Origin: Lachnospiraceae bacterium | Lineage (GTDB): Bacteria; Bacillota; Clostridia; Lachnospirales; Lachnospiraceae | Length of the DNA: 64,000 nt | Direction: 5' to 3' | Assembly: GCA_045126475.1 (NCBI GenBank) | Contig: JBGVOL010000067.1 | Coordinates: 18,105 to 82,104, forward strand | In this document: piece by piece, positions 44,025 to 62,444 of the stretch | Position numbering within the stretch: the stretch's first letter is position 1 | How the letters are laid out: the number at the start of each line of letters is the position of its first letter | The notes under the pieces: generated by a model | Databases searched by the model: none | What the model saw: only the letters and a program-made list of their open reading frames with translations | What the model was told of the DNA's origin: nothing | Translations under genes and position numbers: made by a program

Positions 44025-44063
44025 TTAGCAAAAGAAAAAATACATTTTTTTACAAAAAAACTA

Positions 44064-44185: not shown

Positions 44186-44249
44186 GGGCAAGGATGCTGA
44201 AACTAAAAAAATATTAAAGAAGGAATCTAAAAAAGGATTTTCAAGGAGG
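44186..44249 (+). promoter_or_regulatory. CsrA-type GGA motifs in the flagellin-3 leader
   Basis: GCA-AGGA-TGC mini-hairpin, then AGGAAT, AAGGAT and SD AAGGAGG (44243-44249). Confidence 0.4.
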
Positions 44250-44256
44250 AATTATT

Positions 44257-45711: not shown

Positions 45712-45737
45712 TATAAAATAAAAGAATCAGTTCATAA

Positions 45738-45769
45738 AGCTTCACTTTTGAATAGAGTGGAGCTTTTTT
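45738..45769 (+). terminator. rho-independent terminator of flagellin 3
   Basis: AGCTTCACT / AGTGGAGCT stem (one G-U pair) followed by TTTTTTG. Confidence 0.6.
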
Positions 45770-47561: not shown

Positions 47562-47562
47562 G

Positions 47563-48615: not shown

Positions 48616-48627
48616 AGGAGTTAGAGA

Positions 48628-50373
48628 ATGATAAAGGTTTCAGATTATGTATATGAATTTTTAAAGGAAAAGAAAGTCGAACATGTTTTTATGCTTCCAG
48701 GTGGTGGAGCCATGCATCTGGTTGATTCTCTCGGAAAGTCAGGAATTAATTATATATGTTTCCAGCATGAACAGGGCGCTTCAATTGCAGCAGAGGCTTA
48801 TGGACAGCATACTAACAAGCCGGGGGTGGTTTTAACTACATCAGGTCCCGGAGCGACAAATGCTATTACGGGTGTTACAGCGGGATGGATTGATTCTACG
48901 CCAATGATTGTTATATCTGGACAGGCAAAAAGATGCGATTTGGTAGGAAGCAAGGGAGTTAGACAAATAGGATCTCAAGAAGTACAGGTAGTAGATATGG
49001 TTAAGTCTATTACAAAATATGCTGTAGAGGTAATGAATCCAATAGATATCAAATACCATCTGGAAAGGGCATATTATGAGGCTACAACTGGAAGACCGGG
49101 GCCTGTATGGCTGTCTATTCCTTTAGACGTTCAAGGGGCATTTGTTGATAAGAATGGTCTTAGAGGATATGAACAAGTATATAAAAATAATCAGGAAGAT
49201 TTTGACGAGAAAATAAATCATATAGTTAATTGTATTTATAATTCCAGAAAACCGCTTATCATAGCGGGAAATGGTATTAAGTTATCAGGAGCTACAAGGG
49301 AATTTTATAAGTTTATAGAAAAATTAAATATTCCTGTGATTACTACATGGAAAACTATTGATATGTTTGATGAAAATTATAAATTGTATATTGGCCATCC
49401 TGGAATAATGGGTGACAGAGCAACTAATAAGCTGATTCAAGAAGCAGACTTGCTCATATCAATTGGAAGCAGATTAGACACAAGTATTACAGCATTTGAT
49501 GAGCCAAACTTTGCAAAAAATGCAAAAAAAATTATTATTGATATAGATGAAAATGAAATAAAAAGAATGAACATGGAAAAAGAGGTTTGGATGGCATGTG
49601 ATGCAAAGTGTGTTCTGTTAGCTCTAAATTCCAAGATTGGAGGAAAGTTTAATGTAAACCAATGGTTAGATTATTGCAGACAAATGAGAAAAAAGTACCC
49701 TGTTATAACGTCAAAACATAGGGATACAGGGAATTATGTCAGTGCATATTATTTTATTGAAGAATTATGTAGACTTTTAAGGGATGATGATGTTATAGTG
49801 CCAGAAAGCTCTGGAGCAGCAGGAGAAATAACATATCAGGCATTTAAGATAAAACAAGGACAGAAGATGAAAAATGCAGCAGGACTTGGCTCTATGGGAT
49901 TTGGACTTCCGTATGCAATAGGTTCGTGCATTGCCAATGATAAAAGAAGAACTATTCTTATAAATGGAGATGGTGCGTTTCAATTAAATATTCAAGAACT
50001 AGAGACGTTGCACAGGCTAGCACTTCCTGTAAAAATTTTTATTTGGAATAATAATGGGTATGCAAGCATTAGAAGTATGCAGAGAGGGAATTTTGATGGA
50101 CATTATGTTGCTAGCAATGAAGAGAGTGGATTCTCAGTTCCAAATTGTACAAAAATTGCTGCTGCTTATGGATTTGAAACTTGCACAATATCAGATAATG
50201 ATGAAATGTTAGAAAAATTGCCACGAATTCTCGCTGATGATAGAATGATATTATGTGAAGTTATTATTTCTCCTGATGAAACCGTTTGGCCAAGAGTAAA
50301 AGCTAAAATCTTACCGGATGGAGGTATGAAATCAGGAGCTTTAGAAGATATGTGGCCATATGAGGAGAATTAG
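48628..50373 (+). CDS. thiamine-diphosphate-dependent enzyme, acetolactate-synthase-like fold
   Basis: N-terminal PYR domain (FMLPGGGAMHLVD...TSGPGATNAITGVTAGWIDSTPMIVISGQ) and C-terminal ThDP motif (GLGSMGFGLPYAIG...INGDGAFQLNIQEL...IWNNNGY). Confidence 0.8.
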   Translation: MIKVSDYVYEFLKEKKVEHVFMLPGGGAMHLVDSLGKSGINYICFQHEQGASIAAEAYGQHTNKPGVVLTTSGPGATNAITGVTAGWIDSTPMIVISGQAKRCDLVGSKGVRQIGSQEVQVVDMVKSITKYAVEVMNPIDIKYHLERAYYEATTGRPGPVWLSIPLDVQGAFVDKNGLRGYEQVYKNNQEDFDEKINHIVNCIYNSRKPLIIAGNGIKLSGATREFYKFIEKLNIPVITTWKTIDMFDENYKLYIGHPGIMGDRATNKLIQEADLLISIGSRLDTSITAFDEPNFAKNAKKIIIDIDENEIKRMNMEKEVWMACDAKCVLLALNSKIGGKFNVNQWLDYCRQMRKKYPVITSKHRDTGNYVSAYYFIEELCRLLRDDDVIVPESSGAAGEITYQAFKIKQGQKMKNAAGLGSMGFGLPYAIGSCIANDKRRTILINGDGAFQLNIQELETLHRLALPVKIFIWNNNGYASIRSMQRGNFDGHYVASNEESGFSVPNCTKIAAAYGFETCTISDNDEMLEKLPRILADDRMILCEVIISPDETVWPRVKAKILPDGGMKSGALEDMWPYEEN

Positions 50374-50382
50374 CATAGTGAT

Positions 50383-51414
50383 ATGAAAAAAAATAAATGG
50401 ATAACAATATGGAGTTATGCTCAAAGAAAAACTACTTTTACTCGCTGGGAAAATCAGAATAGTTTTGAAATCAGATTTAAAAATAATATTGAAGGAACTA
50501 AAGTTAGAATAAGATTCAGCAATTGGTATGGTGTTCACGACACAGGCATTAAAAGTGTATATATGTTGTATGAGGGTCGTAGATACGTTACAAAATGTAA
50601 TAATGAAGAAAGATTTAGGGTTTTTCCTGATAGCGATTTAACATCAGATTATATTGAAATACATGTGGTCCCAGGAACAAATATAGGTGTGGTGGTAGAA
50701 TTTGAAAGTTTTATTAGGCCAGACTCCGGAAATACATTTGATGGTTGTATAGCAATGATTCTTCAGTCTGTAGATGTGTATACAGATAGTAAGGTGTCGG
50801 GGGTAGCATTTTTTGGAGATAGTATAACTCATAGAAGAAAATGGACAGAGCCACTTATAGATATGTGGTACGAGAAGTACAGAGGGATGATTGTAGCTTA
50901 TGAGGTGTCGATAGATGGTTCCAGGCTGTTAAAAGATTCACCGAAAGAATGTGATAACACGTTGGGTTTTTCGGCAAGAGCAAGATTTAGTCATGACATA
51001 CTAAAAAATAATGGTATTACACATATTTTTTTTGAATTAGGATTAAATGACTTGTCGCTTGAAGATATTGATAATACGTTGTCAGTGGATAATTTGATTA
51101 AAGAGATGAAAGAAATTGTTAATATGGCTCACGAACACAACATTATGGTAATTGGGATGACAATCACACCTCGAAGAGAAGACCATATATATGATTATAA
51201 AAGAAATAATATGAGAAAAAAAGTAAACGAAATAATATTGAATGGGCACATCTTTGATAAAGTAATAGATATATCTGGATTGCTTGGAAATGAGGATGAT
51301 ACTCAGTTGAGTCCTGAGTATGGATGTGAAGACGGAGTTCATTTGAATAATAAAGCAGGAGAATTTCTGTCAAAGTATATTTATAACAATATATCAGAAG
51401 ATATTCTCTTCTAA
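50383..51414 (+). CDS. SGNH/GDSL-type hydrolase with N-terminal beta-rich domain
   Basis: Block I AFFGDSITH, block III GLNDL, block V DGVHLN. Confidence 0.7.
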   Translation: MKKNKWITIWSYAQRKTTFTRWENQNSFEIRFKNNIEGTKVRIRFSNWYGVHDTGIKSVYMLYEGRRYVTKCNNEERFRVFPDSDLTSDYIEIHVVPGTNIGVVVEFESFIRPDSGNTFDGCIAMILQSVDVYTDSKVSGVAFFGDSITHRRKWTEPLIDMWYEKYRGMIVAYEVSIDGSRLLKDSPKECDNTLGFSARARFSHDILKNNGITHIFFELGLNDLSLEDIDNTLSVDNLIKEMKEIVNMAHEHNIMVIGMTITPRREDHIYDYKRNNMRKKVNEIILNGHIFDKVIDISGLLGNEDDTQLSPEYGCEDGVHLNNKAGEFLSKYIYNNISEDILF

Positions 51415-51429
51415 AGGAGAACAGAGATA

Positions 51430-52539
51430 ATGAAGAAGGTAATACTATATGGTGCAGGCACTCAAAATTTGCGAATGGCATTTCAGCCTATAGTTTCAGC
51501 GGGATATGAGGTTTTTGCAATTGTTGATAAAGATAGACAAAAACAAGGGAAAGACTTTTATGGTGTAGAAATCAATGCACCAGAAATAATAAAAAGTATT
51601 AAAGAAAATGCAGATGATTATCAGATAGTGGTTACCATTAGAACAGAAGAAACTGTACTTGAAGTAAAAGAATATTTAAAACAGATTACGAGTATTCGTG
51701 TTTATTCATTTAGTGAGTTTATTGAAAATGAAAAGCTAAACAGTAAGATTAAGAGATTTTCCTGCGTTATGTTTCATTTGGTAGATCACTGTAATATGTC
51801 TTGTGTTAGATGTTCGCACTTTTCACCATTGGCAAAGAAAAACGGGTATTATTTGTCACTTGATGAGTTTGAAAGAGATATTAAAAGGCTGAAGATACTT
51901 ACAAATGGAGATATAGATGAGATTCAGTTATCGGGTGGAGAACCATTACTGCATCCTCAAGTACATATTTTCCCTTATATTGTGCATAAGTATTTTCCGG
52001 ATACTCAGATAATAATTATAACAAATTCAATAAAAATTAAAGATATGGGTCGGGACTTTTTTGATTCATGCAGAGCAAATAAAGTAAATATATGGATATC
52101 CAGATATCCAATTGGATTGGATTATGGTGCAATAATGAAGAGATTGGAGGAAGAGGAAATATATGCTATCTTCGGAAATTCTGGAAATTCAGACAATAAG
52201 CCGAAAGAGATGTGGGGTTTACCAATGAAACTTGATGGTGGGCTTGATGGAAGAAAGAATTTTGATTGTTGCCTTTGCATGCAATATATTCTGAGAAACG
52301 GAATTATGTACCCATGTGCGAATAGTGCGTATATTGATTTGTTCAATGAATATTTCGATAAGAAATTACCAGGACCGCAAGTAAATGGTGTTGATATATA
52401 TAAAGTCAGGAATATGGAGGAATTGGCAAGAGAAATATCAAGGCCGGTTCCACTTTGTGACTATTGTGATGCAAAACACCGAAAAAGTGGAATACCATGG
52501 TGTGTGTCAAAGAAAGATATTGAAGAATGGACTATATAG
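51430..52539 (+). CDS. radical SAM enzyme (twitch/SPASM-like C-terminus) with N-terminal GxG Rossmann-like module
   Basis: N-module KKVILYGAGTQN...FAIVDKDRQKQGKDFYGVEINAPEII. Radical SAM triad HCNMSCVRC (CX3CX2C). Auxiliary CMQYILRNGIMYPC (C-X7-G-X4-C) and CDYCD. Confidence 0.8.
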   Translation: MKKVILYGAGTQNLRMAFQPIVSAGYEVFAIVDKDRQKQGKDFYGVEINAPEIIKSIKENADDYQIVVTIRTEETVLEVKEYLKQITSIRVYSFSEFIENEKLNSKIKRFSCVMFHLVDHCNMSCVRCSHFSPLAKKNGYYLSLDEFERDIKRLKILTNGDIDEIQLSGGEPLLHPQVHIFPYIVHKYFPDTQIIIITNSIKIKDMGRDFFDSCRANKVNIWISRYPIGLDYGAIMKRLEEEEIYAIFGNSGNSDNKPKEMWGLPMKLDGGLDGRKNFDCCLCMQYILRNGIMYPCANSAYIDLFNEYFDKKLPGPQVNGVDIYKVRNMEELAREISRPVPLCDYCDAKHRKSGIPWCVSKKDIEEWTI

Positions 52540-52549
52540 TGGAGGTTAT

Positions 52550-53716
52550 ATGAGTGTAGAAGAAAAAGCTGTTAGCATTGTAGGGGAAAAATATTTATTG
52601 GGATATGAATTTTATAGAAATCAAGGAATGAAAAGTTTTTTTCAAATTAAGAGGGAACAATATAAATATATGTGTATATTTGGAGCCGGAGTTCTCGGAA
52701 CTACATTGTGCAGATGGCTTAAGAATAATGGAATAGAGGTTGATTATTTCTGTGATAATAATAGAGATAGGGACAGCGCGAGAATTATGGATATTCCTTA
52801 TATAACATTTGAAGAACTTGAAGAGATTAAAAATGATGTATATGTTATGGTTTCTGTAACAAATAAGGGATGCGGTAAGAAGTATAATGAAGAGATAAAT
52901 AATCAGTTAAAAGGATTTCCGAATGTTATGCCTAATATATTGCAGTTTATTGGCTTTTATACTAATGACTATAAACTAAATTATGATATATGTATAAAGT
53001 ATGTAGAGAAAATAGTATCAACGCTGGAAGACAATAAGTCAAAAGAATTATTTCTTGAAAATCTAAAATACAAATTTATATCAGATGGTGAACCTGTTTC
53101 ATACAATACTTTGGAGAAGTTCTATAGTCCTGTTCAATACTTTTCGGAAGAATATTATAAAAATACTTCAGATGCGGTTATTGTAGACTGTGGAGCATAT
53201 AAAGGAGATACACTTTTGGAGTATATTAACCTTTTTGGAGATGAATTCACAGAATATCATTGTTTTGAAATGGATGTTGAAGCATTAGAAAAATTAAAAG
53301 TAAATGTGTCAAAACTTCCTTTGAAGATAAAGAGTAAAGTTAAGATACATCCATATGGTGTGTACAAAGAAAGAGGAGAAGCCTATTATGATATATCCAC
53401 GGAAACATTGGCATCTTGTATAAGTGAAACTGGTCAAATGAAGGCTAAATTGATTTCATTGGATGAGGAATTATATGAAAACAGGGTGACTATGATAAAT
53501 ATGGATATAGAAGGCTCTGAGTTATCGGCCCTTCAAGGTGCTGATAAAATTATTAAAAGGTGTAAGCCAATGCTTGCAATAAGTATATACCACTCTACGG
53601 AGCAATTTTTAGGTGTACCATTTTATCTGATGAATAAGTACCCATTTTATAAATACTATATGGGACTACATACTACTATAACAGATGACTGTGTATTATA
53701 TGCGGTTCCAAAGTAA
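52550..53716 (+). CDS. FkbM-family methyltransferase with N-terminal GxG Rossmann-like module
   Basis: Start moved to MSVEEK (ATG at 52550, GGAGG 5 nt upstream). N-module YMCIFGAGVLG...DYFCDNNRDRDSARIMDIPYITFEEL. FkbM motifs VIVDCGAYKGDT and INMDIEGSELSALQGA. Confidence 0.75.
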   Translation: MSVEEKAVSIVGEKYLLGYEFYRNQGMKSFFQIKREQYKYMCIFGAGVLGTTLCRWLKNNGIEVDYFCDNNRDRDSARIMDIPYITFEELEEIKNDVYVMVSVTNKGCGKKYNEEINNQLKGFPNVMPNILQFIGFYTNDYKLNYDICIKYVEKIVSTLEDNKSKELFLENLKYKFISDGEPVSYNTLEKFYSPVQYFSEEYYKNTSDAVIVDCGAYKGDTLLEYINLFGDEFTEYHCFEMDVEALEKLKVNVSKLPLKIKSKVKIHPYGVYKERGEAYYDISTETLASCISETGQMKAKLISLDEELYENRVTMINMDIEGSELSALQGADKIIKRCKPMLAISIYHSTEQFLGVPFYLMNKYPFYKYYMGLHTTITDDCVLYAVPK

Positions 53717-53737
53717 GTTTAGTTAGGAGGAATTCTT

Positions 53738-54748
53738 ATGGTAAAACGAGATAGGTTAGAATATTCTAATTTGAGAACTAGATTAGAAGAAGCGGTTCCA
53801 TTGCCCGCACCATTTGTTGTTTTTTTAGATCCATGTGGTGCCTGCAATTTTTTTTGTAAGTTTTGTCCATGCAATAATAGCGATTTCATGAGAGAACAGA
53901 GGCATGAAAAAATGTCCATGGAATTATTCTATAAAATTCTTAATGACCTTGAAGAATTCACTGAAAAGGTAAAAGTTATAAATTTGTATGGATTTGGAGA
54001 GCCACTGTTACATCCTCAATATATTGAAATGATAAAAGAGATAAAGGATAGAAATATTTGTCGAGAACTTAGGTGTACTACAAACGGATTTCTTTTATCG
54101 GAGCAAATGAACAAAAAACTAGTAGAGGCAGGAATTGATATGGTTAGAATATCGGTAGAGGCTCTAAATAGTAAAGATTATTTAGACATTTGTAATGTGA
54201 AGATAGATTTTGAACAATTTGTCAGAAACATAAAAAATTTGTATGAAATAAGCAGAGGAACAAGTACAAAGGTTTCTGTTAAAATTTTAAATGTTGCTCT
54301 TAAAGATGACAATGATGCCAACAGATTTTATGATATTTTTGAACCTATATCAGATTATACATATATTCAGGATACTACACAGGCATGGTCTGAGTTTGAT
54401 GCCTATGTACCTGAGAATAATTATAGTGCAGGTAACATTGGAGATATGAAAGATGAGGACAAAATATGCTCGTTTGCTTTAACTAATATGGCCATTCATT
54501 CAAATGGAAGTGTGGGTGTATGTCCTCAAGATTGGAAATTTGCAACCGAATATGGAAGTGTTAAAAACACATCGCTTAAAGATTTATGGGATTCAAATAA
54601 GCTTTTGGGATTTAGAGTTGCACATTTAAGTGGAAATAGGAGAAAAATTCCATATTGCAAAGATTGTGATGTTTGCGTGTCTAATGATGATGTAAGAAAA
54701 AGTGCAGACATAATAATTAAAAGATTAAAAGATAATAAAAATAGGTGA
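53738..54748 (+). CDS. radical SAM/SPASM-type enzyme (no N-module)
   Basis: FLDPCGACNFFCKFCP (CX3CX2C). C-terminal CSFALTNMAIHSNGSVGVC (C-X12-G-X4-C) and PYCKDCDVC. Confidence 0.8.
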   Translation: MVKRDRLEYSNLRTRLEEAVPLPAPFVVFLDPCGACNFFCKFCPCNNSDFMREQRHEKMSMELFYKILNDLEEFTEKVKVINLYGFGEPLLHPQYIEMIKEIKDRNICRELRCTTNGFLLSEQMNKKLVEAGIDMVRISVEALNSKDYLDICNVKIDFEQFVRNIKNLYEISRGTSTKVSVKILNVALKDDNDANRFYDIFEPISDYTYIQDTTQAWSEFDAYVPENNYSAGNIGDMKDEDKICSFALTNMAIHSNGSVGVCPQDWKFATEYGSVKNTSLKDLWDSNKLLGFRVAHLSGNRRKIPYCKDCDVCVSNDDVRKSADIIIKRLKDNKNR

Positions 54749-54753
54749 AGTGT

Positions 54754-55602
54754 ATGACAGCATTTGAACAGATGACGAAGATAATCGAAAGGCTAATACA
54801 AGATGGCTGCAAAAATTTTATTATTTACCCATATGGTATACCAGGTAAAGCTGTGCATAGAATTCTTATTGAAAAGTATGGTATAGAGCCGGTAGCAATT
54901 ATTGATGAAAAAAAAGCAACGGATGATGGTAAAATATGTAAATCAGAGCATCTTGATAGTATTGATGGAGGGGTAGTTCTTGTAGCAACAAAAAATCCTG
55001 AATGTTTGAAAGAAATTAAAGAAAAAGTAAAGGAAAAAGGTCAACGGTTCAGAGTTGAAGATGTATTACCTGTCGAGGTTGGCAGACATACATGGGGGGA
55101 AGGTATATTACCAGAATGCTCTGGATTTACAATAGAGAGAATAGGTTCTTTTTGTAGTTTCGCTAAGGGTTCGTGTGTAGTTGGAAATCATCAGATTGAT
55201 ACTGTATCCTCTAGTGCTTTATTCAATGGAATTAATTTAGATGGTGCAGATATTTTTAAGGAAAAGTGTGAAAATGTAAAACTTGGGGATATGACAGACG
55301 TAAAGAGATGTATCATAGGAAATGATGTTTGGCTTGGACGCAATGTAATTGTGTGCAATGGTGCAATAATAGGAGATGGAGTTGTGGCGGCGGCAGGAGC
55401 TGTTATAACGAAAGATGTTCCGGACTATGCGATTGTAGGCGGGGTTCCGGCGAAAATCATAAAGTATAGATATTCAGAAGAACAGATAAAAAAGTTGAAG
55501 AAAATAAAATGGTGGGATTGGAGCGATGAAAAGATTGTAGATAATTTTGAAGATTTTCATAATATAGAACGATTTTTAGATAAGCATTACCGAGATGAAT
55601 AA
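54754..55602 (+). CDS. CatB/Vat-type (XAT) hexapeptide acetyltransferase with N-terminal Rossmann-like module
   Basis: N-module NFIIYPYGIPGKAVHRIL...VAIIDEKKATDDGK. LbH repeats IGNDVWLGRNVIVCNGAIIGDGVVAAAGAVITKDVPDYAIVGGVPAKIIKYRY and tail KIKWWDWSDEKI. Start taken at ATG 54754 (AGGTGA upstream); GTG 54745 is possible. Confidence 0.8.
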   Translation: MTAFEQMTKIIERLIQDGCKNFIIYPYGIPGKAVHRILIEKYGIEPVAIIDEKKATDDGKICKSEHLDSIDGGVVLVATKNPECLKEIKEKVKEKGQRFRVEDVLPVEVGRHTWGEGILPECSGFTIERIGSFCSFAKGSCVVGNHQIDTVSSSALFNGINLDGADIFKEKCENVKLGDMTDVKRCIIGNDVWLGRNVIVCNGAIIGDGVVAAAGAVITKDVPDYAIVGGVPAKIIKYRYSEEQIKKLKKIKWWDWSDEKIVDNFEDFHNIERFLDKHYRDE

Positions 55603-55629
55603 AAAGTACATATGAAAGGAAAATAAAAA

Positions 55630-56727
55630 ATGAATATATTTGGAGAGCCTAGAACAAAGGCAGATATAATAAAACATGAGAAGTTGTTTTTGTGGGGAGC
55701 AGGATTTGCCTGCACAATGACGGTAAATTGTTTTGGAAAAGAGAAAGTTAACGGAATATTTGATAATGATGAGAGGAAATGGGGCGAAAAGCTCTGTGGT
55801 ATTGACATAATATCACCACAAAAATTAGAAGAATATAAAAATGATGATTATGTAATAGTAATTTCAACTAATGGATACGAATATGAGATAGCAGAAGGTA
55901 TAAAAGAAAAATGGAATGTTCCACAGGATAGGATTTACTGCAATTCAAACGATATACTTGAGGAATGTAGATATTTACCAAGGATTATAGAAGAAAATAT
56001 GGATAGGATATTTGCGGTAAAGGAGATGCTGGCAGATAATGATTCAAAAGAATTTTATATGAATTTTATAAAAGCGTGTTATAACAGAAATCCGTTTTTG
56101 TTTAGGGATAACAAAAGTGCAGTTGATGCTTACGAATACGCTACTGATATGGCATCTGTTGGACTGAAAGGTGGAGAAACAATTCTTGATTGTGGTGCAT
56201 TCATTGGAGATACAGCAAGATTATTTATGGGCAAGACAAAAAATAATTGTAAAATATATTGTTTTGAACCTGTTGTAGAAAATTGTAAAGAGATGGAGAA
56301 GTGGATAAAAGAAGAAAAGATAGATAATGTTTTTGTGCACAATGTAGGTGTGGGGGAGAAAAAACATAAAGACTATGTTTACTCCAATGAGGAAGTTACA
56401 ACTATGGGTGCAGTGGGGGATAACAGATTTAGAGCAGACAATCCGGTTGTAAATGAAATACTGGTAGATACTATTGATAATTTGGCAGAAGGAATAGCGG
56501 TCGACTATATAAAAATGGATATTGAGGGAGCTGAAATGGCAGCAATAAGAGGTGGAAAAAACACTATACTAAAAAATAAACCACAAATGCTAATTAGTGG
56601 ATATCACAGAATAGCGGATATGTGGGAGATTCCAGAATATGTTATTGGATTATGCAGTGAGTACAAGATATTTTTAGGTCATCAGCCACACGCACCGTTT
56701 GAGCCGGAGTTTATGTTTGTAAGATAG
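55630..56727 (+). CDS. second FkbM-family methyltransferase with N-terminal GxG Rossmann-like module
   Basis: N-module KLFLWGAGFAC...NGIFDNDERKWGEKLCGIDIISPQKL. FkbM motifs ILDCGAFIGDT and IKMDIEGAEMAAIRGG. Confidence 0.75.
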   Translation: MNIFGEPRTKADIIKHEKLFLWGAGFACTMTVNCFGKEKVNGIFDNDERKWGEKLCGIDIISPQKLEEYKNDDYVIVISTNGYEYEIAEGIKEKWNVPQDRIYCNSNDILEECRYLPRIIEENMDRIFAVKEMLADNDSKEFYMNFIKACYNRNPFLFRDNKSAVDAYEYATDMASVGLKGGETILDCGAFIGDTARLFMGKTKNNCKIYCFEPVVENCKEMEKWIKEEKIDNVFVHNVGVGEKKHKDYVYSNEEVTTMGAVGDNRFRADNPVVNEILVDTIDNLAEGIAVDYIKMDIEGAEMAAIRGGKNTILKNKPQMLISGYHRIADMWEIPEYVIGLCSEYKIFLGHQPHAPFEPEFMFVR

Positions 56728-56737
56728 GAGAATACGT

Positions 56738-57808
56738 ATGAAAAAAATGGGAATAGCGACGTTATACTTTTACAATAATTTTGGCTCAGTACTTCAGGCG
56801 TATGCTCTGAAAAATGTTTTAGAAGGAATGAACGTGGACGTTGAGTTTTTGCCGTATAAGCCGGCTATTCCTAATGTGAAGTATTTTCAAGATACGAAGC
56901 TTCAGAAAAAGTATTTTGAGAAAGGTCAGAAATTTGATGCGTTTAGGAATAAAATTTTAAATATAAAGGATGGAGATATTCGTGAGTCAAATTTACTAAA
57001 CAAGGAGTTAGATGGCTACATAGTAGGAAGCGATATAGTATGGGGAAGGGAATTTTCAAACTTGGATCCTGTTTATTTCTTGGATTTTGTTGATAAAGGT
57101 AAAGTACGTGCAACGTATGCTGCAAGTATGATTTTTAATAGTAATGGATTGCCAGAAAATGATGCAATATACGAAAAATATATACCAAAGTTTGATTACT
57201 TATCTGTTAGGGAACAATCAAGTGTTCCATACATTCAAAAACTTACAGAAAAGAAAGTATATACTGTGTTGGATCCTACACTTCTACTTAATAGTAGTCA
57301 GTATGATTCTATAGCTGATTGCACGTGCGGCAGAGAACAAAAATCGCCATATCTTTTATCGTATTTTTTAACACATGATCCTGCGGTAGTAGATTACACA
57401 AATATGATTGCAAAAAAGTTAGGCTTAAGGGTAGTTCATTTTTTTGCGGATTATCCTAAAAGGGTGTTTGATGAAAATGCAGGGGATTTCACTTTTGTAG
57501 GACCATCAGAATTTTTGGGTTTGGTAAAAAATGCCGCGTGTATTTTTACAAATTCATTCCATGGAACATGTTTCTCAATTATATATCGTAAACCCTTTTA
57601 TACATATACAGCAAAGAGGAGTTTGTTATCTAGAGTTGATAATATGGCGGAAAGATTAGATATAAAAGCACGTTGCTTTACAGATTTTAGGGATTTGAAT
57701 AAGGTTACATTGGATATTGATTACACAGAGGTAGAAAGAAGAATTGAAGTTGAAAAGAAATACTCTTTGGAATATTTAAGAAGTGTTGTGGAGGGGTTGT
57801 ATGTATAA
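56738..57808 (+). CDS. polysaccharide pyruvyl transferase family protein
   Basis: N-terminus MGIATLYFYNNFGSVLQAYALKNVLEGM and overall layout typical of PS_pyruv_trans proteins in Firmicute glycan loci (recognition by memory). Confidence 0.7.
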   Translation: MKKMGIATLYFYNNFGSVLQAYALKNVLEGMNVDVEFLPYKPAIPNVKYFQDTKLQKKYFEKGQKFDAFRNKILNIKDGDIRESNLLNKELDGYIVGSDIVWGREFSNLDPVYFLDFVDKGKVRATYAASMIFNSNGLPENDAIYEKYIPKFDYLSVREQSSVPYIQKLTEKKVYTVLDPTLLLNSSQYDSIADCTCGREQKSPYLLSYFLTHDPAVVDYTNMIAKKLGLRVVHFFADYPKRVFDENAGDFTFVGPSEFLGLVKNAACIFTNSFHGTCFSIIYRKPFYTYTAKRSLLSRVDNMAERLDIKARCFTDFRDLNKVTLDIDYTEVERRIEVEKKYSLEYLRSVVEGLYV

Positions 57809-58205
57809 TGGAGTTTATGATCAAGAGCAGTTTGCCTATATGTATGATACTTTAACAAAGTGGTTAAATGTAAAGATAAATAAAGGATCATTGGGAAAAT
57901 GTCTTATAAATAAAAACATTAATAAGATATATATATATGGTTTGGGTAATATAGGAAAAATGGCTTATGATGATATAGTCACCGAACAGGTTGAGGTAAA
58001 GTCGTTTGTTGATAAGAAATATAAAAAATACGTAGATGGATATAAGGGAATTCAAGTTATTGGAATCGAAAAATTAGGAGAACTGGATGAGGATACATAT
58101 ATCCTTGTGACGCCAGAGTATTATTTTAACGATATACTAAATGATTTAAGGGAAGGGGGAATACCATTGGATAAAATAATTACAATACCAATGGTAATTG
58201 TCTGA
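57801..58205 (+). CDS. stand-alone copy of the GxG Rossmann-like module (134 aa)
   Basis: KIYIYGLGNIGKMAYDDIV...KSFVDKKYKKYVDGYKGIQVIGIEKLGELDEDTYILVT. ATG at 57801 after GGAGGGG. Overlaps the upstream stop (ATGTATAA) and the downstream start (TGATG). Confidence 0.5.
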   Translation: MYNGVYDQEQFAYMYDTLTKWLNVKINKGSLGKCLINKNINKIYIYGLGNIGKMAYDDIVTEQVEVKSFVDKKYKKYVDGYKGIQVIGIEKLGELDEDTYILVTPEYYFNDILNDLREGGIPLDKIITIPMVIV

Positions 58206-59545
58206 TGAGAGATATTACATTAAAAGAATTTATGGAAAAGATACAATCTGAAAACAAGAAGATTGTATGTTTTGGAACAGGTCTTATGCTGGAAGATGCA
58301 ATGAGGAATAAAGATATTCTTGAAAGAATAGTTTATCTTGTAGATAATAATAGAGAAAAACAGGGAAGAAATCTGTTGGTTTTTGGAAGAGAATATAGCG
58401 TGTATTCGCCGGAGGAAATTGTTGAGAGATTAGATGAACAAACCGTGATTCTAATAACATCGGGGTATTACAAAGAGATATTAAATCAGTTGGAAACAAT
58501 GAATGGAATTGATAATACAGAAATTTATTCCTATCCTGAAATACGTGTGAATTTAAAAAAAGGGAGCGAAGAGTTTTTTGAAAAAAGAATTCTTGATGAA
58601 TGCTTAAAAGAGTATGATGAATTACTGGTACAGTTTGGAATAGATAAAGATAAAAAAAACAGGCTTATAGAAGAGAAAAAGAAATATATATTAGGTTCAA
58701 GTGTATCAGAACGCCCAGTTGTACTTCCGAGAATAATGATTATGCCTACAACAAAGTGTAATCTTAGGTGTAAAGGATGTTCGTCGCTTCTTCCTTTATT
58801 CGATAAACCATGTGATGTTGAAATAGATAAAATAATCACTGATTTAAACAGTTTTTTTGCGGCTATTGATCAATGTATAAGGATTACTATCGGGGGTGAG
58901 CCTTTTTTATATCCTCGTTTAAAGGAGGTTCTGGAATATCTTATAGATGAACAGAAGGTGCTTGGCATTATTATGATTACAAATAGTACCATTTTGCCCA
59001 AAACTGAGATAATTGAACTAATGAAGAATAAAAAGGTAATGGTTGAGGTAAGTGATTATGGTCATCTTGAGAAAATGAGTCGGCTCATTACTTTGTTGGA
59101 AAAAAATGATGTTTATTTTAAAGTTTTGACAGAGCAGAAATGGACAGACATGGGAGGCGTGCAGTATAGAAATAGAACACAAGAGGAACTGAGATTTTCA
59201 TATTTAAATTGTGAACAAAGTAGAATAATTAAAGGCGTGCACGATGGAAAGTTTTTTACGTGTGCAAGATGCGCCAGAATGCTTGCATTAGGAGTATTTA
59301 AATCCGAGAGAGATTATTTTGATTTGAGTGACGATTCTGAATATATAAGAGGAAGAATAAAAGAAATGTACAGTTATGATTATGCTGATGCCTGCAATTA
59401 TTGTGATTTGGGAAGTTTGCCGACGAAGGTTATTGATGCAGGTGTACAACTTAATGGTAGTATAGAAAAGTCAGCATACACTATTGTGAATAGAGAAGAA
59501 TATGAAAGGTTAAAAAGTGAATCGGTATTAAGAGGAAGACAATAA
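58205..59545 (+). CDS. radical SAM enzyme (twitch/SPASM-like) with N-terminal GxG Rossmann-like module
   Basis: N-module KIVCFGTGLML...VYLVDNNREKQGRNLLVFGREYSVYSPEEI. Triad KCNLRCKGC. Auxiliary CEQSRIIKGVHDGKFFTC (C-X11-G-X4-C), CARC and CNYCD. Confidence 0.8.
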   Translation: MRDITLKEFMEKIQSENKKIVCFGTGLMLEDAMRNKDILERIVYLVDNNREKQGRNLLVFGREYSVYSPEEIVERLDEQTVILITSGYYKEILNQLETMNGIDNTEIYSYPEIRVNLKKGSEEFFEKRILDECLKEYDELLVQFGIDKDKKNRLIEEKKKYILGSSVSERPVVLPRIMIMPTTKCNLRCKGCSSLLPLFDKPCDVEIDKIITDLNSFFAAIDQCIRITIGGEPFLYPRLKEVLEYLIDEQKVLGIIMITNSTILPKTEIIELMKNKKVMVEVSDYGHLEKMSRLITLLEKNDVYFKVLTEQKWTDMGGVQYRNRTQEELRFSYLNCEQSRIIKGVHDGKFFTCARCARMLALGVFKSERDYFDLSDDSEYIRGRIKEMYSYDYADACNYCDLGSLPTKVIDAGVQLNGSIEKSAYTIVNREEYERLKSESVLRGRQ

Positions 59546-59547
59546 AT

Positions 59548-61692
59548 ATGAATAATATGTCGTATTATAGTGCTGAACAGAAGCAGGTAATTGAACTGTT
59601 TAGAAATGGATTAAAAAAATATATTGATAAAAATATAGTTCTATATGGTATTGGAAGGAATACAGATGCTATTGTTGGAGAGGTAAAAGAATATAACATA
59701 ATGGGGTTAATGGATGTTTCTTCTACAGGACAAACTGTTTATGGAATGAAAGTCTTGGATGAGAGTGAGGTTATTAAATTAAAAGCAATCGTGGTTATAG
59801 TTGCAAGAGATTCAGTAATACCAATAATTTATAGCAGAATTAAGCATTTGAAAGAAAATGGAATCATTATAGTTGACTATGCAGGTAGATGTATAAATGA
59901 GTCGGAGAAATATGAGAATGATTTTCTAGAATATTGGAGTATTACAGAAGACGACCTTTTAAAAGAAATCGATAAGCATAAGGTGATTTCCTTTGATTTG
60001 TTTGATACACTTATAATGAGAAAGATTCTTAATCCGGATAATGTTTTTGAATTGGTAGAGAGAGTATTGCCTTTTGATGAAAATAAAAAAAGGGGGTTTT
60101 CTAAAATACGTCGAAAAACGGGAAAAGAATTAAGAGGGTGTCCTGACATAAATGAAATTTATAAAGAAATGGAAAAGTATGGGTTTGACACAAAAATACT
60201 TGAAGAAGGAAAGAAAATAGAAATAGATATAGAAAAAAAAATGCTTTGTCAAAGGAAAAAGATGGTTGAAATATTTGAGTATGCAGTTAATACAGGAAAA
60301 CAAGTATATATTGTTTCAGATATGTACTTGAATAAGAGTATTATTGAGAATATAGTGAATTCGTTAGGAATAACAGGATATTTGAACATTCTTGTTTCTT
60401 GCGAATATGGCAAAAGTAAGGAAAGTGGAGAATTATATAGGGAGTTAAAAAAGGAATCAGGTAGTGGACAAATACTTCATATTGGTGACAATAGAATTGT
60501 CGATGGAGAATTGGCAGAAAAGGAGGGGATAGATTCATTTTTGATTTATAGTGCATATGATATTTTTATGGCATCTTCGATGAATAAATTGCTAGTTGAT
60601 ATAAACAGTTTGGAAGAAAAGATAATATTGGGATTGCTGGCAGAGAACTTATTTAACAATCCATTTGTACTTTCTGATAGTAAGGGTAAAGTATGTATTA
60701 ATGATTTTAAACTATTTGGAAAAGCAATTATTGGTCCAATTATGGGGGAGTTCGTACATTGGCTTGTTTGTCAGGTAAATGAAAGTAAACAAGATGAGCT
60801 TTTGCTACCATCAAGAGATGGATATCTTATAAAAGTGTTGTTAGATAGTTTAAAATGTAAAAAAAACTTTTCATATAGTTATTTTAAAAGCTCCAGACGA
60901 ACGGTGTCAGTGGCAGCTACAAAAAACATGGCAGATATATTAGGATTACTAGAAAGAAAATACAATGGCACTTATGGAGATTTTCTTTATGACAGATTTG
61001 GCGTAGAACCATGTAGAGATGATGATATGAGAAATAAAATTATTGTGTGGGACAGGGACTATAGCAGCGTCAAAAAATATATATTGTCTTATGCAGAAAG
61101 TATATTAAAAAATGCTAGTAAGGAAAGAGATAATTATAATAAATATTTAAAGAAAAATAATATTATGCATGGAAGGTCATACGCTATATTTGATTTTATT
61201 GCTGGCGGAACGGTACAGCATTATTTAGAAAAAATTATTGGAAATAGGCTTGAGGGCTTTTATTTTGCAACAATGAATCTTCCTAATCGCTGGTTTGGCG
61301 TTGGAGATATAAAAAGTGCCTATGGTAATATATGTTCATATGGAGGTAAAAGCTATATAGAGAAGTATTATCTTTTACTTGAGGGTATTATGACGGATGA
61401 AAATGCTACACTTATACGTGTGGAAGATTCTGGAGAAATGGTATATGAAGAGAAAAAAAATAATAATTATAAAAATATTGCTTTGATTCAAGCAGGAATA
61501 GTAGATTATGTAAATGAACAAGATGAAATAAAACGGTTAATGGATGATTGGAAATTGTCATTCGAAATGTCTGATAAAATATTTGGGCAGATATTTGAAA
61601 ACGGATGCGTTGTCAGTGAGGATATTAAGAAAAGTTTTGAGAATGACGATAAATACATGGGGATAAAGACATATAGAATGTGGAGTAAGTAG
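59548..61692 (+). CDS. large multidomain protein: GxG Rossmann-like module + HAD-like hydrolase domain + ~350-aa domain of unknown function
   Basis: N-module NIVLYGIGRNT...MGLMDVSSTGQTVYGMKVLDESEV. HAD motif I ISFDLFDTLIMRK, motif III-like ILHIGDN. The C-terminal half has no recognisable motif. Confidence 0.55.
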   Translation: MNNMSYYSAEQKQVIELFRNGLKKYIDKNIVLYGIGRNTDAIVGEVKEYNIMGLMDVSSTGQTVYGMKVLDESEVIKLKAIVVIVARDSVIPIIYSRIKHLKENGIIIVDYAGRCINESEKYENDFLEYWSITEDDLLKEIDKHKVISFDLFDTLIMRKILNPDNVFELVERVLPFDENKKRGFSKIRRKTGKELRGCPDINEIYKEMEKYGFDTKILEEGKKIEIDIEKKMLCQRKKMVEIFEYAVNTGKQVYIVSDMYLNKSIIENIVNSLGITGYLNILVSCEYGKSKESGELYRELKKESGSGQILHIGDNRIVDGELAEKEGIDSFLIYSAYDIFMASSMNKLLVDINSLEEKIILGLLAENLFNNPFVLSDSKGKVCINDFKLFGKAIIGPIMGEFVHWLVCQVNESKQDELLLPSRDGYLIKVLLDSLKCKKNFSYSYFKSSRRTVSVAATKNMADILGLLERKYNGTYGDFLYDRFGVEPCRDDDMRNKIIVWDRDYSSVKKYILSYAESILKNASKERDNYNKYLKKNNIMHGRSYAIFDFIAGGTVQHYLEKIIGNRLEGFYFATMNLPNRWFGVGDIKSAYGNICSYGGKSYIEKYYLLLEGIMTDENATLIRVEDSGEMVYEEKKNNNYKNIALIQAGIVDYVNEQDEIKRLMDDWKLSFEMSDKIFGQIFENGCVVSEDIKKSFENDDKYMGIKTYRMWSK

Positions 61693-61700
61693 AGGTATAT

Positions 61701-62390
61701 ATGGAGCTTTCACTTGGAACAGATCAACTTAAAACATTTTTAAAATATCAGTTAGAGAATCATTTTCCGGATGGTTTAACAGAAAAAGGGTTTGGAGGAA
61801 AAGATATTGATCGTGCTATGGATATGGCATTATATAGATTAGAGAAATGTTTTAGAGCAGTGATTTTACCTGCATATAGTGATGATAGGGGAAATACATT
61901 TTTTAATCATTTACATTCGGATCAATATGCCCAGTTTTTGTATTTTTTTATGAATTCGTTATGGAAGGAATCGGAAAATAAACTAATATGCGATAAGGTT
62001 ATGTTACTTTTAAGGGATTTGAATGGCATTTTTATGACATATAAGTGCGAGATGCCTGATATTTTTTTGCTATTGCACGCAGTAGGAACGGTGATAGGAA
62101 ATGTTAAGTTTTCCGATTATCTTGTAATTCTTCAGAACGTAACCATAAATACTGGAGTAGATAATCTTGGCGCCCTGAAAATAGGAAAGGGTGTTACATT
62201 TTGTGCGGGATCAAAAGTTATTGGTGATGAACCGATAGGTGACAGAGTGAATGTTGGTGTAGATGCAGTTATTTATAAGACTAGAGTTGATAATGATAAA
62301 AGTGTTATCAGAGCATATGATGGTAGTATACAGATAAAAAAGAGTAATTTTTGCATGGCGCAGAGACATTTTAGAGATGAGATAGTGTAG
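61701..62390 (+). CDS. left-handed beta-helix acyltransferase (serine-acetyltransferase/WcaB-like)
   Basis: Helical N-terminal half followed by hexapeptide-type repeats (IGNVKFSDYLVILQNVTINTGVDNLGALKIGKGVTFCAGSKVIGDEPIGDRVNVGVDAVI). Confidence 0.6.
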   Translation: MELSLGTDQLKTFLKYQLENHFPDGLTEKGFGGKDIDRAMDMALYRLEKCFRAVILPAYSDDRGNTFFNHLHSDQYAQFLYFFMNSLWKESENKLICDKVMLLLRDLNGIFMTYKCEMPDIFLLLHAVGTVIGNVKFSDYLVILQNVTINTGVDNLGALKIGKGVTFCAGSKVIGDEPIGDRVNVGVDAVIYKTRVDNDKSVIRAYDGSIQIKKSNFCMAQRHFRDEIV

Positions 62391-62444
62391 CATTTTGACC
62401 GGGGAATTCTTATAGAGCTAAAACTAATTATGAGGAGATGTAAT

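Follow-up and report, generated by a model that had tools for sequence, protein, structure and literature searches.

Three radical SAM enzymes from two lineages are encoded in a flagellin glycosylation island within a 64,000-nucleotide stretch of a Lachnospiraceae contig (hereafter, the window). These enzymes probably catalyze dehydrogenase- or epimerase-type reactions on nucleotide-activated sugars. This is the best explanation of the protein folds, sequence motifs, homology, gene context and conservation described below, from which we infer the substrate, the outcome of the reaction and that flagellin is the final acceptor. The island suggests that the flagella of gut anaerobes are a site of unexplored radical sugar chemistry. 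The initial annotation of this region is confirmed in its observation and partly supported in its interpretation.

The late flagellar genes in the window, namely, FlgK/L, FliW, FlaG, FliD and FliS, are followed by three glycosyltransferase genes, three flagellin genes and, directly 3' of the latter, a sugar synthesis and tailoring operon of at least 17 genes, in agreement with the flagellin-glycan context that had been proposed. The features are:
36196-40466, forward strand: three GT2 glycosyltransferase genes (Pfam Glycos_transf_2)
40718-42163, 42470-43927 and 44257-45711, forward strand: three tandem flagellin genes (Pfam Flagellin_N and Flagellin_C; the third from the ORF translation)
45736-45766, forward strand: hairpin resembling a terminator, 3' of the third flagellin gene (stem of 13 bp, then a T-run)
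45845-46615, forward strand: glucose-1-phosphate cytidylyltransferase (TIGR02623, 416.9 bits; cut-off 300)
46737-47561, forward strand: short NeuB-like synthase (NeuB matches including Pfam NeuB)
47563-48615, forward strand: fusion of HAD (KdsC-like) and SIS (GmhA-like) domains (GmhA and KdsC matches, Pfam SIS_2)
48628-50373, forward strand: acetolactate-synthase-like TPP enzyme (TPP matches)
50383-51414, forward strand: GDSL/SGNH protein (GDSL match)
51430-52539, forward strand: rSAM1, 369 aa; N-terminal Rossmann-like domain of about 95 aa and SpeY-like twitch radical SAM core
52553-53716, forward strand: FkbM-family methyltransferase 1 (Pfam Methyltransf_21, TIGR01444); shared N-terminal domain (HMM E = 4.9e-12)
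53738-54748, forward strand: rSAM2, 336 aa; BtrN-like twitch radical SAM protein lacking the extra N-terminal domain
54745-55602, forward strand: hexapeptide-repeat acetyltransferase with a Vat/CatB-like C-terminal half; shared N-terminal domain (HMM E = 1.6e-3, also aligned)
55630-56727, forward strand: FkbM-family methyltransferase 2 (Pfam and NCBIfam matches); shared N-terminal domain (HMM E = 1.7e-13)
56738-57808, forward strand: polysaccharide pyruvyl transferase (Pfam PS_pyruv_trans, 117.9 bits); gene 1 of a four-gene module
57801-58205, forward strand: small stand-alone N-domain protein of about 134 aa (HMM E = 1.9e-13), C2185-like_N/PglD_N-like; module gene 2
58205-59545, forward strand: rSAM3, 446 aa; SpeY-like twitch radical SAM core preceded by an N-terminal Rossmann-like domain and a two-helix linker (module gene 3)
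59548-61692, forward strand: 714-aa HAD protein; N-domain (HMM E = 2.3e-4), HAD-like domain and C-terminal region of about 400 aa; module gene 4
61701-62390, forward strand: serine-acetyltransferase/WcaB-like acetyltransferase (NCBIfam EpsC, CysE and WcaB matches, all sub-threshold)
62430-64000, forward strand: ORF cut by the window end, with a GT2 domain in its C-terminal part (Pfam Glycos_transf_2, 51.3 bits)

Because the last of these ORFs runs off the end of the window, the operon extends beyond it. The hairpin is suggestive of a boundary, with a separate sugar operon starting after the flagellin genes, although such sites in total do not exceed the shuffled expectation. The intergenic gaps across the rSAM-containing stretch (47561-62390) range from -8 to 27 nt, and the interval 51430-59545 includes five genes besides those of the three radical SAM proteins. 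The first in-frame ATG of FkbM methyltransferase 1 (52385) would overlap rSAM1, and translation likely begins at 52553, an internal Met. Neither an SDR 4,6-dehydratase nor an aminotransferase is encoded in the window, which counts against deducing the precise sugar.

The flagellin glycosylation islands of Clostridium and Geobacillus have the same layout, with flagellin, glycosyltransferases, a NeuB-type synthase, a nucleotidyltransferase and FkbM methyltransferases (PMC5109656, PMC13317340). The word 'radical' is absent from both of these comparative papers. The island in the window lacks the standard Pse/Leg set (PseB/C/G/H or LegB/C/G) and instead encodes the short NeuB, the HAD-SIS fusion, the TPP enzyme and a CDP-glucose-forming enzyme.

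Exactly three radical SAM ORFs are present in the window, all above the gathering threshold of 29.5 bits for Pfam Radical_SAM (rSAM1, 35.7; rSAM2, 76.9; rSAM3, 31.9), and the family HMMs detect no fourth. The CX3CX2C triads occur precisely as originally quoted, on the forward strand: CNMSCVRC in rSAM1 (C121/C125/C128), CNFFCKFC in rSAM2 (C36/C40/C43) and CNLRCKGC in rSAM3 (C185/C189/C192). In the entire window, whose stop-to-stop ORFs amount to 39.7k residues, about one CxxxCxxC string would be expected by chance; there are five, the remaining two in short spurious ORFs. Within each family, the GGE motif is invariant. The C-terminal auxiliary-cluster motifs reported previously are real, with the four Cys conserved in 98-100% of the approximately 115-120 homologues per family (281/296/343/346 in rSAM1, 244/262/307/310 in rSAM2 and 336/353/397/400 in rSAM3), but the first ligand of rSAM1 is C281, not C283, which is retained in 34% of the homologues.

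The label SPASM had to be dropped. Four conserved Cys in each family are indicative of the twitch type, and the seven-Cys SPASM motif is absent from all three proteins, as judged by Cys conservation in the families; Pfam SPASM matches rSAM2 alone (41.2 bits). All three are predicted to be twitch-type enzymes with one auxiliary cluster, and none is a full SPASM protein. The three were also described as paralogous, which holds at the superfamily level, but they are distant relatives rather than recent paralogs. In BLASTP comparisons, they share 25-32% identity over 60-144 residues (E = 3e-6, 1e-3 and 9e-5), and in profile comparisons, rSAM1 and rSAM3 form one clade (E = 1.6e-24), with rSAM2 more distant (E = 4e-8 and 7e-6).

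The closest characterized relatives act on sugars or cyclitols, as the initial annotation anticipated for radical SAM enzymes with auxiliary clusters. SpeY, a twitch radical SAM dehydrogenase of spectinomycin biosynthesis (PDB 7WZV/7WZX/7X0B), is the top Foldseek match for the AF2 models of rSAM1 (pLDDT 94.6; 7wzv, E = 1.3e-12, TMt 0.67) and rSAM3 (pLDDT 93.8; E = 2.7e-13, TMt 0.69), with BtrN coming next for the AF2 models. The family profiles of rSAM1 (E = 1.4e-20) and rSAM3 (E = 3.6e-12) also match SpeY, with the auxiliary Cys, all four in the case of rSAM3, aligned. The partial-barrel radical SAM core, the twitch domain and the four Cys ligands at aligned positions are common to SpeY, rSAM1 and rSAM3, as would be the substrate class, a sugar or aminocyclitol secondary alcohol. 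However, identity is about 20%, and the N-terminal Rossmann-like domain of rSAM1 and rSAM3 as well as the helical linker of rSAM3 lie outside the alignment. The contexts differ as well: an anaerobic Firmicute flagellin-glycan operon versus an actinomycete antibiotic cluster, where the substrate of SpeY is a pseudodisaccharide, whereas that of rSAM1 and rSAM3 is probably a nucleotide sugar. By secondary-structure position, neither rSAM1 nor rSAM3 contains a conserved non-ligand Cys obviously placed as a hydrogen-atom donor. The core homologues of rSAM1 include fusions with glycosyltransferases (GT8, GT2, GT17).

For rSAM2, the nearest relative is BtrN, the 2-deoxy-scyllo-inosamine dehydrogenase of butirosin biosynthesis (PDB 4M7S/4M7T); the profile match spans the core and the twitch domain (E = 1.3e-19). 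The auxiliary Cys of rSAM2 align with C169/C187 and the CxxC pair of BtrN, with identical spacing (C-x17-C-x44-C-x2-C). Unlike BtrN, rSAM2 is about 70 residues longer and contains additional invariant Cys (C45, directly after the SAM-cluster triad, C108 and C152) at positions where BtrN has no Cys. TPP enzymes and NDP-sugar genes are recurrent neighbors of rSAM2 homologues. The 14-21% identity to SpeY and BtrN means that neither reaction type nor substrate is confidently transferable. In all three families, homologue names go no further than 'radical SAM protein' or 'hypothetical', and given that there is no characterized homologue, we infer both reaction and substrate.

Twitch and SPASM relatives also catalyze dehydration, decarboxylation and C-C or C-S chemistry, which counts against the assignment. 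The three enzymes might accordingly perform other radical sugar chemistry, such as 1,2-diol dehydration or deoxygenation of the AprD4, viperin or DesII type, BlsE-type decarboxylation, or C-C or ring rearrangement; a concrete version would be a radical SAM enzyme replacing E1/E3 deoxygenation in a yersiniose-like CDP-sugar pathway. BlsE, viperin, AbmM, DesII and AprD4 are indeed found among the weaker structural and profile matches. In one related locus (L085), rSAM2 homologues are located between NTP-transferase and SDR plus TPP genes; another locus (L087) harbors a yersiniose-like set in which DegT, SDR and a TPP enzyme accompany a cytidylyltransferase-like NTP transferase. We nevertheless consider such chemistry somewhat unlikely because these matches reach E-values of 1e-4 to 1e-6, against about 1e-12 to 1e-20 for SpeY and 1e-19 for BtrN, and because a fully Cys-ligated auxiliary cluster placed as in BtrN and SpeY fits electron acceptance.

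The HMM of the shared N-terminal domain matches exactly seven ORFs in the window, all in this operon and including rSAM1 and rSAM3. The domain displays a beta1-GxG, beta2-Asp pattern and is most similar to Methyltransf_14, PglD_N, C2185-like_N, CoA_binding and PDB 3nkl. Domains of the PglD_N, Methyltransf_14 and C2185-like_N type hold the nucleotide of an NDP-sugar substrate, and given that the best Pfam matches are to the N-terminal domains of PglD/NeuD and the C-terminal domains of sugar C-methyltransferases, a similar role in ligand binding is predicted here. Most matches to NDP-sugar-binding Pfam domains are sub-threshold, as in the small N-domain protein (PglD_N, 21.4 bits; C2185-like_N, 16.1 bits), but the rSAM3 domain scanned alone matches Methyltransf_14 above the gathering score. 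Precomputed PF22674 annotations also bear on this kinship, and the FkbM structure 2py6 is among the Foldseek matches of the rSAM3 model. We found no published description of this domain fused to radical SAM cores or to a HAD protein.

The module of pyruvyl transferase, small N-domain protein, rSAM3 and HAD protein of about 700 aa is conserved from Lachnospiraceae to a spirochaete. Every locus in which the rSAM3 orthologue is at least 45% identical contains it, among them those of a Termitinemataceae spirochaete and Peptoanaerobacter. The pyruvyl transferase adjoins rSAM3 orthologues in L001-L009, L083, L084 and L087, orthologues of the small protein (132-136 aa) are present in L001, L002, L083, L084 and L087, and those of the HAD protein (655-795 aa) follow rSAM3 in related loci. 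No PDB sequence relative of the HAD protein was found; its HAD_2 and TIGR01549 matches are weak, and no domain was recognized in its C-terminal region. In the spirochaete locus L083, neither flagellin nor NeuB is encoded within 10 kb of the module, which is therefore not flagellin-specific.

This observation would fit radical SAM enzymes that act on the glycan after its transfer to flagellin or a different polymer of the cell surface, for example capsule or wall polysaccharide, with the N-domain serving as an assembly or NAD/CoA-binding module. Consistent with such a role, relatives are present in Dysgonamonadaceae, Methanobacteriaceae and Prevotellaceae, which are considered non-motile; the N-domain shows similarity to Rex, too, and to the CoA-binding Rossmann domains of succinyl-CoA synthetase, its fold being one that binds NAD and CoA as well; and characterized pyruvyl transferases commonly use lipid-linked or polymer substrates. 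The operon, however, lies within the cluster of late flagellar genes, immediately behind those for flagellin, and the nearest named kin of the N-domain are NDP-sugar-binding domains, so that post-transfer action appears quite improbable. It is far less plausible still that these are peptide (RiPP) or cofactor maturases lying by chance in a glycan operon: SkfB, SuiB and anSME are among the structural matches, but NCBIfam matches to the tungsten-cofactor maturase, MoaA, HxsB/C, PapB, AlbA and CcpM fall far below the curated cut-offs (for example, 113 versus 380 bits and 73.7 versus 284 bits), no PqqD/RRE family is among the Pfam matches, the two-auxiliary-cluster SPASM motif is absent from all three, the Rossmann-like N-domain is common to methyltransferases and an acetyltransferase, the neighboring genes have to do with carbohydrates in every related locus examined, and the gaps of at most 27 nt leave no room for a precursor peptide ORF.

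Under the favored dehydrogenase/epimerase assignment, the CX3CX2C [4Fe-4S] cluster would reductively cleave SAM, and the resulting 5'-deoxyadenosyl radical would take a hydrogen from a carbon that carries a hydroxyl group in a nucleotide-activated sugar. The auxiliary [4Fe-4S] cluster with its four Cys could then oxidize the alpha-hydroxyalkyl radical to give a keto-sugar, as in the dehydrogenases BtrN and SpeY; alternatively, reduction of the radical from the opposite face would give an epimer, as in the epimerases NeoN and HygY, the latter a relative of SpeY from hygromycin B biosynthesis. Such abstraction of a carbinol hydrogen from a nucleotide-linked sugar, yielding a keto-sugar or an epimer, is the likely reaction; thus, of the several chemistries envisaged in the initial annotation, oxidation and epimerization are favored by homology, whereas C-methylation is unsupported, as the proteins have neither a B12 nor a HemN-type domain. 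In rSAM1 and rSAM3, but not in rSAM2, the N-domain may anchor the nucleotide. The keto or epimerized intermediates would pass to the neighboring tailoring enzymes, with two-carbon branching by the YerE-like TPP enzyme and further modification by the two FkbM methyltransferases, two acetyltransferases and the pyruvyl transferase, before GT2 enzymes attach the glycan to flagellin. rSAM3 presumably works inside the four-protein unit encoded by its module.

Multiple radical SAM genes in glycan loci are common among the relatives of this island, so that, contrary to the initial annotation, three in one operon are not unusual. Among the 83 related loci, 17 carry at least three twitch radical SAM genes and 10 at least four, with a maximum of eight in one locus. 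Many contigs carry all three families together, and flagellin genes adjoin six of the related loci (L001, L030, L033, L034, L036 and L043).

From position 45845 to the end of the window, the plus strand carries a single, tightly packed gene array. Upstream lie flagellar genes, namely those for FlgK, a second FlgK-like protein, an FlgL-like protein, FliW, FlaG, FliD, FliS and an FlgN-like protein, which are followed by three GT2 glycosyltransferase genes, three tandem flagellin genes and then the operon. The two FlgK-type hook-associated protein genes are arranged in tandem and, together with the FlgL-like gene, occupy 27048-31955; the flagellin paralogs, of 481-485 aa, are encoded at 40718-45711. 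The first two junctions have gaps of 133 and 121 nt, and thereafter, across 47561-62390, the gaps range from -8 to 27 nt. Because promoter and terminator scans gave counts not above the shuffled expectation, the operon boundaries rest on gene spacing. The genes, in order, are:

45845-46615, + strand: glucose-1-phosphate cytidylyltransferase
46737-47561, + strand: short NeuB-like synthase
47563-48615, + strand: fusion of a KdsC-like HAD domain and a GmhA-like SIS domain
48628-50373, + strand: acetolactate-synthase-like TPP enzyme
gene 5, + strand: GDSL protein
51430-52539, + strand: rSAM1, radical SAM ORF, 369 aa
gene 7, + strand: FkbM methyltransferase 1
53738-54748, + strand: rSAM2, radical SAM ORF, 336 aa
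gene 9, + strand: acetyltransferase
gene 10, + strand: FkbM methyltransferase 2
gene 11, + strand: pyruvyl transferase
gene 12, + strand: small N-domain protein (the N-domain is common to seven operon proteins)
58205-59545, + strand: rSAM3, radical SAM ORF, 446 aa
59548-61692, + strand: HAD protein, 714 aa
gene 15, + strand: second acetyltransferase
gene 16, + strand: GT2-domain protein

Within a flagellar cluster, sugar and glycosyltransferase genes thus directly adjoin flagellin genes, and by its gene content this layout appears to be a flagellin glycosylation island, in agreement with the flagellin-glycan setting proposed in the initial annotation. The cytidylyltransferase assignment is strong (416.9 bits against a cut-off of 300). 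The ORF at 62430-64000 (>520 aa), in which the first ~365 residues have no Pfam match and the C-terminal part is a GT2 domain according to a six-frame check, runs off the window, so the island continues past it and the full gene set of the operon is not visible. No RNA family was detected with Rfam at the gathering threshold in the whole window.

Several of the sugar genes have features of their own. The 274-aa NeuB-family synthase matches positions 2-274 of the 329-position NeuB model, scores under the NeuB and PseI equivalog cut-offs and apparently lacks the C-terminal SAF domain that is present in the 331-aa NeuB of L085, one of the related loci from other genomes (L001-L087). Similar short forms (274-288 aa, with a NeuB Pfam match only) are encoded in other related loci, including L001 (2425-3291) and L002 (1563-2387). 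The next gene joins a KdsC/KDN-9-P-phosphatase-like HAD and a GmhA-like SIS sugar-phosphate isomerase domain in a single protein, and this fusion is found together with the TPP enzyme and the short NeuB in L001, L006, L011 and L017, a grouping that suggests an ulosonic-acid pathway starting from a ketose phosphate. The window showed no gene of the CMP-NulO/Kdo synthetase type. The TPP enzyme itself scores under the cut-offs of all ALS equivalog models.

The three radical SAM ORFs carry the CX3CX2C strings originally reported for them, and all exceed the gathering threshold of 29.5 bits for Pfam Radical_SAM (PF04055), with 35.7, 76.9 and 31.9 bits for rSAM1, rSAM2 and rSAM3, respectively. Five CxxxCxxC motifs occur in the ORF translations of the window against about one expected by chance, three of them in these proteins, and family HMMs run over the 64 kb detected no radical SAM gene besides rSAM1-3. 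In alignments of each protein with ~115-120 database homologues, the triad is present in 100% of the rSAM1-family and rSAM3-family sequences; in the rSAM2 family, it is invariant in the curated alignment (A3) and 94% conserved in a broader set, the remainder being gaps. The GGE SAM-binding motif is invariant as well (G169-G170-E171 in rSAM1, G87-E88 in rSAM2, G231-E232 in rSAM3).

C-terminal to the core, exactly four cysteines per family are conserved at 98-100%: C281, C296, C343 and C346 in rSAM1; C244, C262, C307 and C310 in rSAM2; and C336, C353, C397 and C400 in rSAM3, all fitting the arrangement C-x14-17-C ... C-x2-C. The C-terminal auxiliary motifs previously noted therefore hold up, except that in rSAM1 the first cysteine assigned to the motif, C283, is only 34% conserved, and the candidate ligand in its place is C281. 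The seven-cysteine SPASM motif (CX9-15GX4C ... CX2CX5CX3C ... C) is absent from all three proteins, and rSAM1 and rSAM3 had no match in the Pfam SPASM scan. rSAM2 matches SPASM (PF13186) at 41.2 bits, with four invariant C-terminal cysteines plus C313 at 64%; the BtrN twitch domain would give such a match likewise. Because each family has four conserved cysteines and no seven-cysteine motif, all three enzymes are predicted to be of the twitch type with a single auxiliary cluster each, so that of the original twitch/SPASM designation, the twitch part is retained and the SPASM part is not.

Apart from the seven cluster ligands, rSAM2 has three further cysteines that are invariant or more than 90% conserved, C45, C108 and C152. 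C45 extends the triad to a CX3CX2CXC string, and C152, which comes after the segment 'RISVEAL' that we take to be a core beta-strand, could be the H-atom donor of an epimerase. Two other cysteines considered as epimerase markers, C214 of rSAM1 and C224 of rSAM3, are probably not catalytic, since the AlphaFold models put each of them at the N-terminal end of a barrel strand.

The description of the three genes as paralogs does not extend to recent duplication, which is ruled out by the low BLASTP identity among them (25-32% across 60-144 residues). Profile comparison groups rSAM1 with rSAM3 (E = 1.6e-24) and places rSAM2 further off. The AlphaFold models of rSAM1 and rSAM3 (pLDDT 94.6 and 93.8) both retrieved with Foldseek, as the top PDB match, 7WZV, named in the Foldseek description as 'Twitch Radical SAM Dehydrogenase SpeY' (E ~1e-12 to 1e-13, TMt 0.67-0.69), followed by far weaker matches to BtrN, anSME, MoaA, BlsE and viperins. 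The family profiles of rSAM1 and rSAM3 also match SpeY (E = 1.4e-20 and 3.6e-12), with the auxiliary cysteines of both families falling on those of SpeY, all four of them in the case of rSAM3. The rSAM2 family profile, in turn, matches BtrN (E = 1.3e-19); C169 and C187 of BtrN align with C244 and C262 of rSAM2, CxxC with CxxC, and the auxiliary cysteine spacing (x17, x44, x2) is the same in both. However, at 14-21% identity to the rSAMs, neither BtrN nor SpeY qualifies as an orthologue, and both belong to aminoglycoside/aminocyclitol clusters, whereas the operon described here lacks aminocyclitol genes and lies in a flagellin-glycan context.

None of the curated NCBIfam models is reached by rSAM1-3, with RiPP, cofactor and N_Twi_rSAM matches all far under the cut-offs: N_Twi_rSAM (NF033640) gives 31.6, 63.5 and 28.5 bits, respectively, against 170; the tungsten-cofactor maturase model W_rSAM_matur at best 113.3 (rSAM2) against 380; and MoaA at best 73.7 (rSAM2, with rSAM1 and rSAM3 lower) against 284, and NirJ/AhbD likewise falls under its equivalog cut-off. 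The B12-binding domain (PF02310) is not matched even at E <= 5, so that by this test the rSAMs are not class B (cobalamin-dependent) radical SAM methylases. Among the homologues of the three families, none has a functional name. The rSAM3 clade is sizeable and unstudied, with 282 representative clusters at E <= 1e-30 and 2137 at E <= 1e-10 in a full-library search. Literature searches for PDB entries 7WZV, 7WZX, 7X0B, 9DFU, 9DFN and 8WM2 or for SpeY/twitch returned nothing relevant.

The N-termini of rSAM1 and rSAM3 consist of an alpha/beta domain of ~95 aa (the N-domain). An HMM built from the rSAM1-family copies matched seven ORFs in the window, every one within the operon: rSAM1, the two FkbM methyltransferases, a hexapeptide acetyltransferase, a stand-alone protein of ~134 aa, rSAM3 and the 714-aa HAD protein. 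In an alignment, all seven share the beta1-GxG and beta2-Asp signature that is characteristic of Rossmann folds binding nucleotides, and in Pfam the domain falls between Methyltransf_14, PglD_N, C2185-like_N and CoA_binding. Scanned alone, the rSAM3 copy matches Methyltransf_14, a sugar C-methyltransferase C-terminal domain, at 25.9 bits against a gathering score of 23.5, and the precomputed Pfam label of homologues is C2185-like_N (PF22674). In structural comparisons, the N-domain is similar to 3nkl, Rex and CoA-binding Rossmann domains; the rSAM3 matches further include 2py6, an FkbM structure. Because NDP-sugar substrates are held by their nucleotide in PglD_N and in the TcaB9-type C-terminal domain, the N-domain probably anchors a common nucleotide-linked substrate. 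A cobalamin-binding role was also considered and rejected, given the lack of a B12-binding match and the occurrence of the domain on enzymes without a use for B12 (SAM methyltransferases, the acetyltransferase and the HAD protein).

The three rSAM families co-occur repeatedly in other loci, for example, in an Aminipila locus beside a flagellin gene (four rSAM genes) and in a Lachnospiraceae MAG from horse faeces (six); all three families are also encoded by Waltera acetigignens (L006). Of 83 loci collected around rSAM3 relatives, 27 encode at least two twitch-type rSAM ORFs, 17 at least three, 10 at least four and one eight; up to seven N-domain ORFs are found per related locus, and flagellin genes adjoin L001, L030, L033, L034, L036 and L043. 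Given this recurrence, three rSAM genes per glycan operon, which had been deemed unusual, are nothing of the kind in sequence space, although experimentally such operons are unexplored. Overall, the initial observation stands with these corrections, and its interpretation is supported in part.

In all loci whose rSAM3 orthologue shows 45% identity or more, the gene adjoins those for the pyruvyl transferase, the small N-domain protein and the ~700-aa HAD protein. This four-gene module is present in L001-L009 and L087 (Firmicutes), in Peptoanaerobacter stomatis (L084) and in a Termitinemataceae spirochaete (L083), where the gene order differs and no flagellin or NeuB genes are nearby. Most likely, the four proteins jointly install one modification, and the module is a compact, testable unit for the discovery of a new sugar modification. 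PDB sequence searches with the 714-aa HAD protein and the pyruvyl transferase gave no matches. The 714-aa protein, which is kept beside rSAM3 from Firmicutes to a spirochaete, has ~400 C-terminal residues without a Pfam, NCBIfam or PDB sequence match.

From the fold, motifs, homology, synteny and conservation of the three enzymes, we infer their substrate, reaction outcome and acceptor in a mechanism that, as a whole, seems reasonably probable. Each rSAM would reductively cleave SAM, and the resulting 5'-deoxyadenosyl radical would take the carbinol-carbon hydrogen of a nucleotide-linked sugar; the substrate radical would then either be oxidised to a ketone via the auxiliary cluster, the outcome in BtrN and SpeY, or be quenched to an epimer, the outcome in HygY and NeoN. 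The adjoining TPP enzyme and the methyl-, acetyl- and pyruvyltransferases would elaborate the product, which GT2 enzymes would attach to flagellin. rSAM2 homologues are repeatedly found beside TPP enzymes and NDP-sugar genes, and in L087 genes for a TPP enzyme, a cytidylyltransferase-like NTP transferase, a DegT-family protein and SDR enzymes occur together, a set that, we presume, resembles the CDP-yersiniose (YerE) branched-sugar pathway. The window lacks a CDP-glucose 4,6-dehydratase, although the cytidylyltransferase and the TPP enzyme are present; because there is no SDR dehydratase, a BtrN-like dehydrogenase could, hypothetically, supply the keto-sugar required by a YerE-like enzyme.

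Some other radical chemistry on the sugar is a rather unlikely alternative to this scheme, and action of the rSAMs on the glycan after its transfer, or on a different polymer, is still less probable. A RiPP or cofactor role, looked for through family placement and an adjacent precursor peptide gene, is hardly credible and was rejected, given the sub-cut-off NCBIfam maturase scores, the absence of RRE/PqqD families from the Pfam matches, the Rossmann-like character of the N-domain and gaps of -8 to 27 nt, which leave no space for a precursor gene in the rSAM-containing stretch of the array.

To our knowledge, all characterised carbohydrate-acting twitch radical SAM enzymes (BtrN, SpeY, HygY and NeoN) come from antibiotic pathways; here, this machinery appears to serve cell-surface glycoconjugate biosynthesis in commensal anaerobes, in loci with two to eight such genes and no functionally named protein. 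Twitch radical SAM carbohydrate enzymes as such are known, and the biological setting, the N-domain fusion and the conserved partner module are new. If the rSAMs use nucleotide sugars, they would form keto, epimeric or branched sugars by radical routes that are new, and the shared N-domain offers a simple handle for finding more tailoring enzymes of the same system. Lachnospiraceae flagellins are major gut antigens and TLR5 ligands, so the structures and genes of their glycans bear on host-microbe recognition. Our literature searches found no relevant work joining radical SAM with flagellin glycosylation, glycosylation islands, nonulosonic acids or nucleotide sugars, and two comparative studies of flagellin glycosylation islands in Gram-positive bacteria make no mention of radical SAM enzymes (PMC5109656, PMC13317340). 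Tentatively, gut and rumen anaerobes, chiefly Lachnospiraceae, might build flagellin sugars by plug-and-play tailoring, in which twitch radical SAM, FkbM methyltransferase, acetyltransferase and HAD modules each carry the ~95-aa nucleotide-anchor domain and all act on one nucleotide-linked sugar. Twitch radical SAM enzymes would replace the C-H activation steps of NAD-dependent SDR enzymes, the four-gene module would add a new pyruvate-derived substituent by radical chemistry, and the resulting sugar would be heavily tailored and of a kind so far unseen on any flagellin; this is a possible picture, and a doubtful one.

Extreme among the related loci are L041, a Lachnospiraceae MAG contig (JAMPFQ010000013.1) with eight twitch-type radical SAM ORFs in a span of ~22 kb, and L038, from a MAG of the presumably non-flagellated Dysgonamonadaceae, with five within 6 kb. 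In L086 (Desulfosporosinus hippei), a stand-alone 280-aa homologue of the rSAM1 core lies amid genes for an integrase, an SMC-like ATPase, TerB and HTH proteins, next to a GT2 gene, and these surroundings suggest a mobile or defence island more than a glycan operon. Three other homologues of this core (P0076, P0099 and P0119; 608-637 aa) are naturally fused to GT8, GT17-like and GT2 domains, and these fusions lend independent support to the predicted carbohydrate role.
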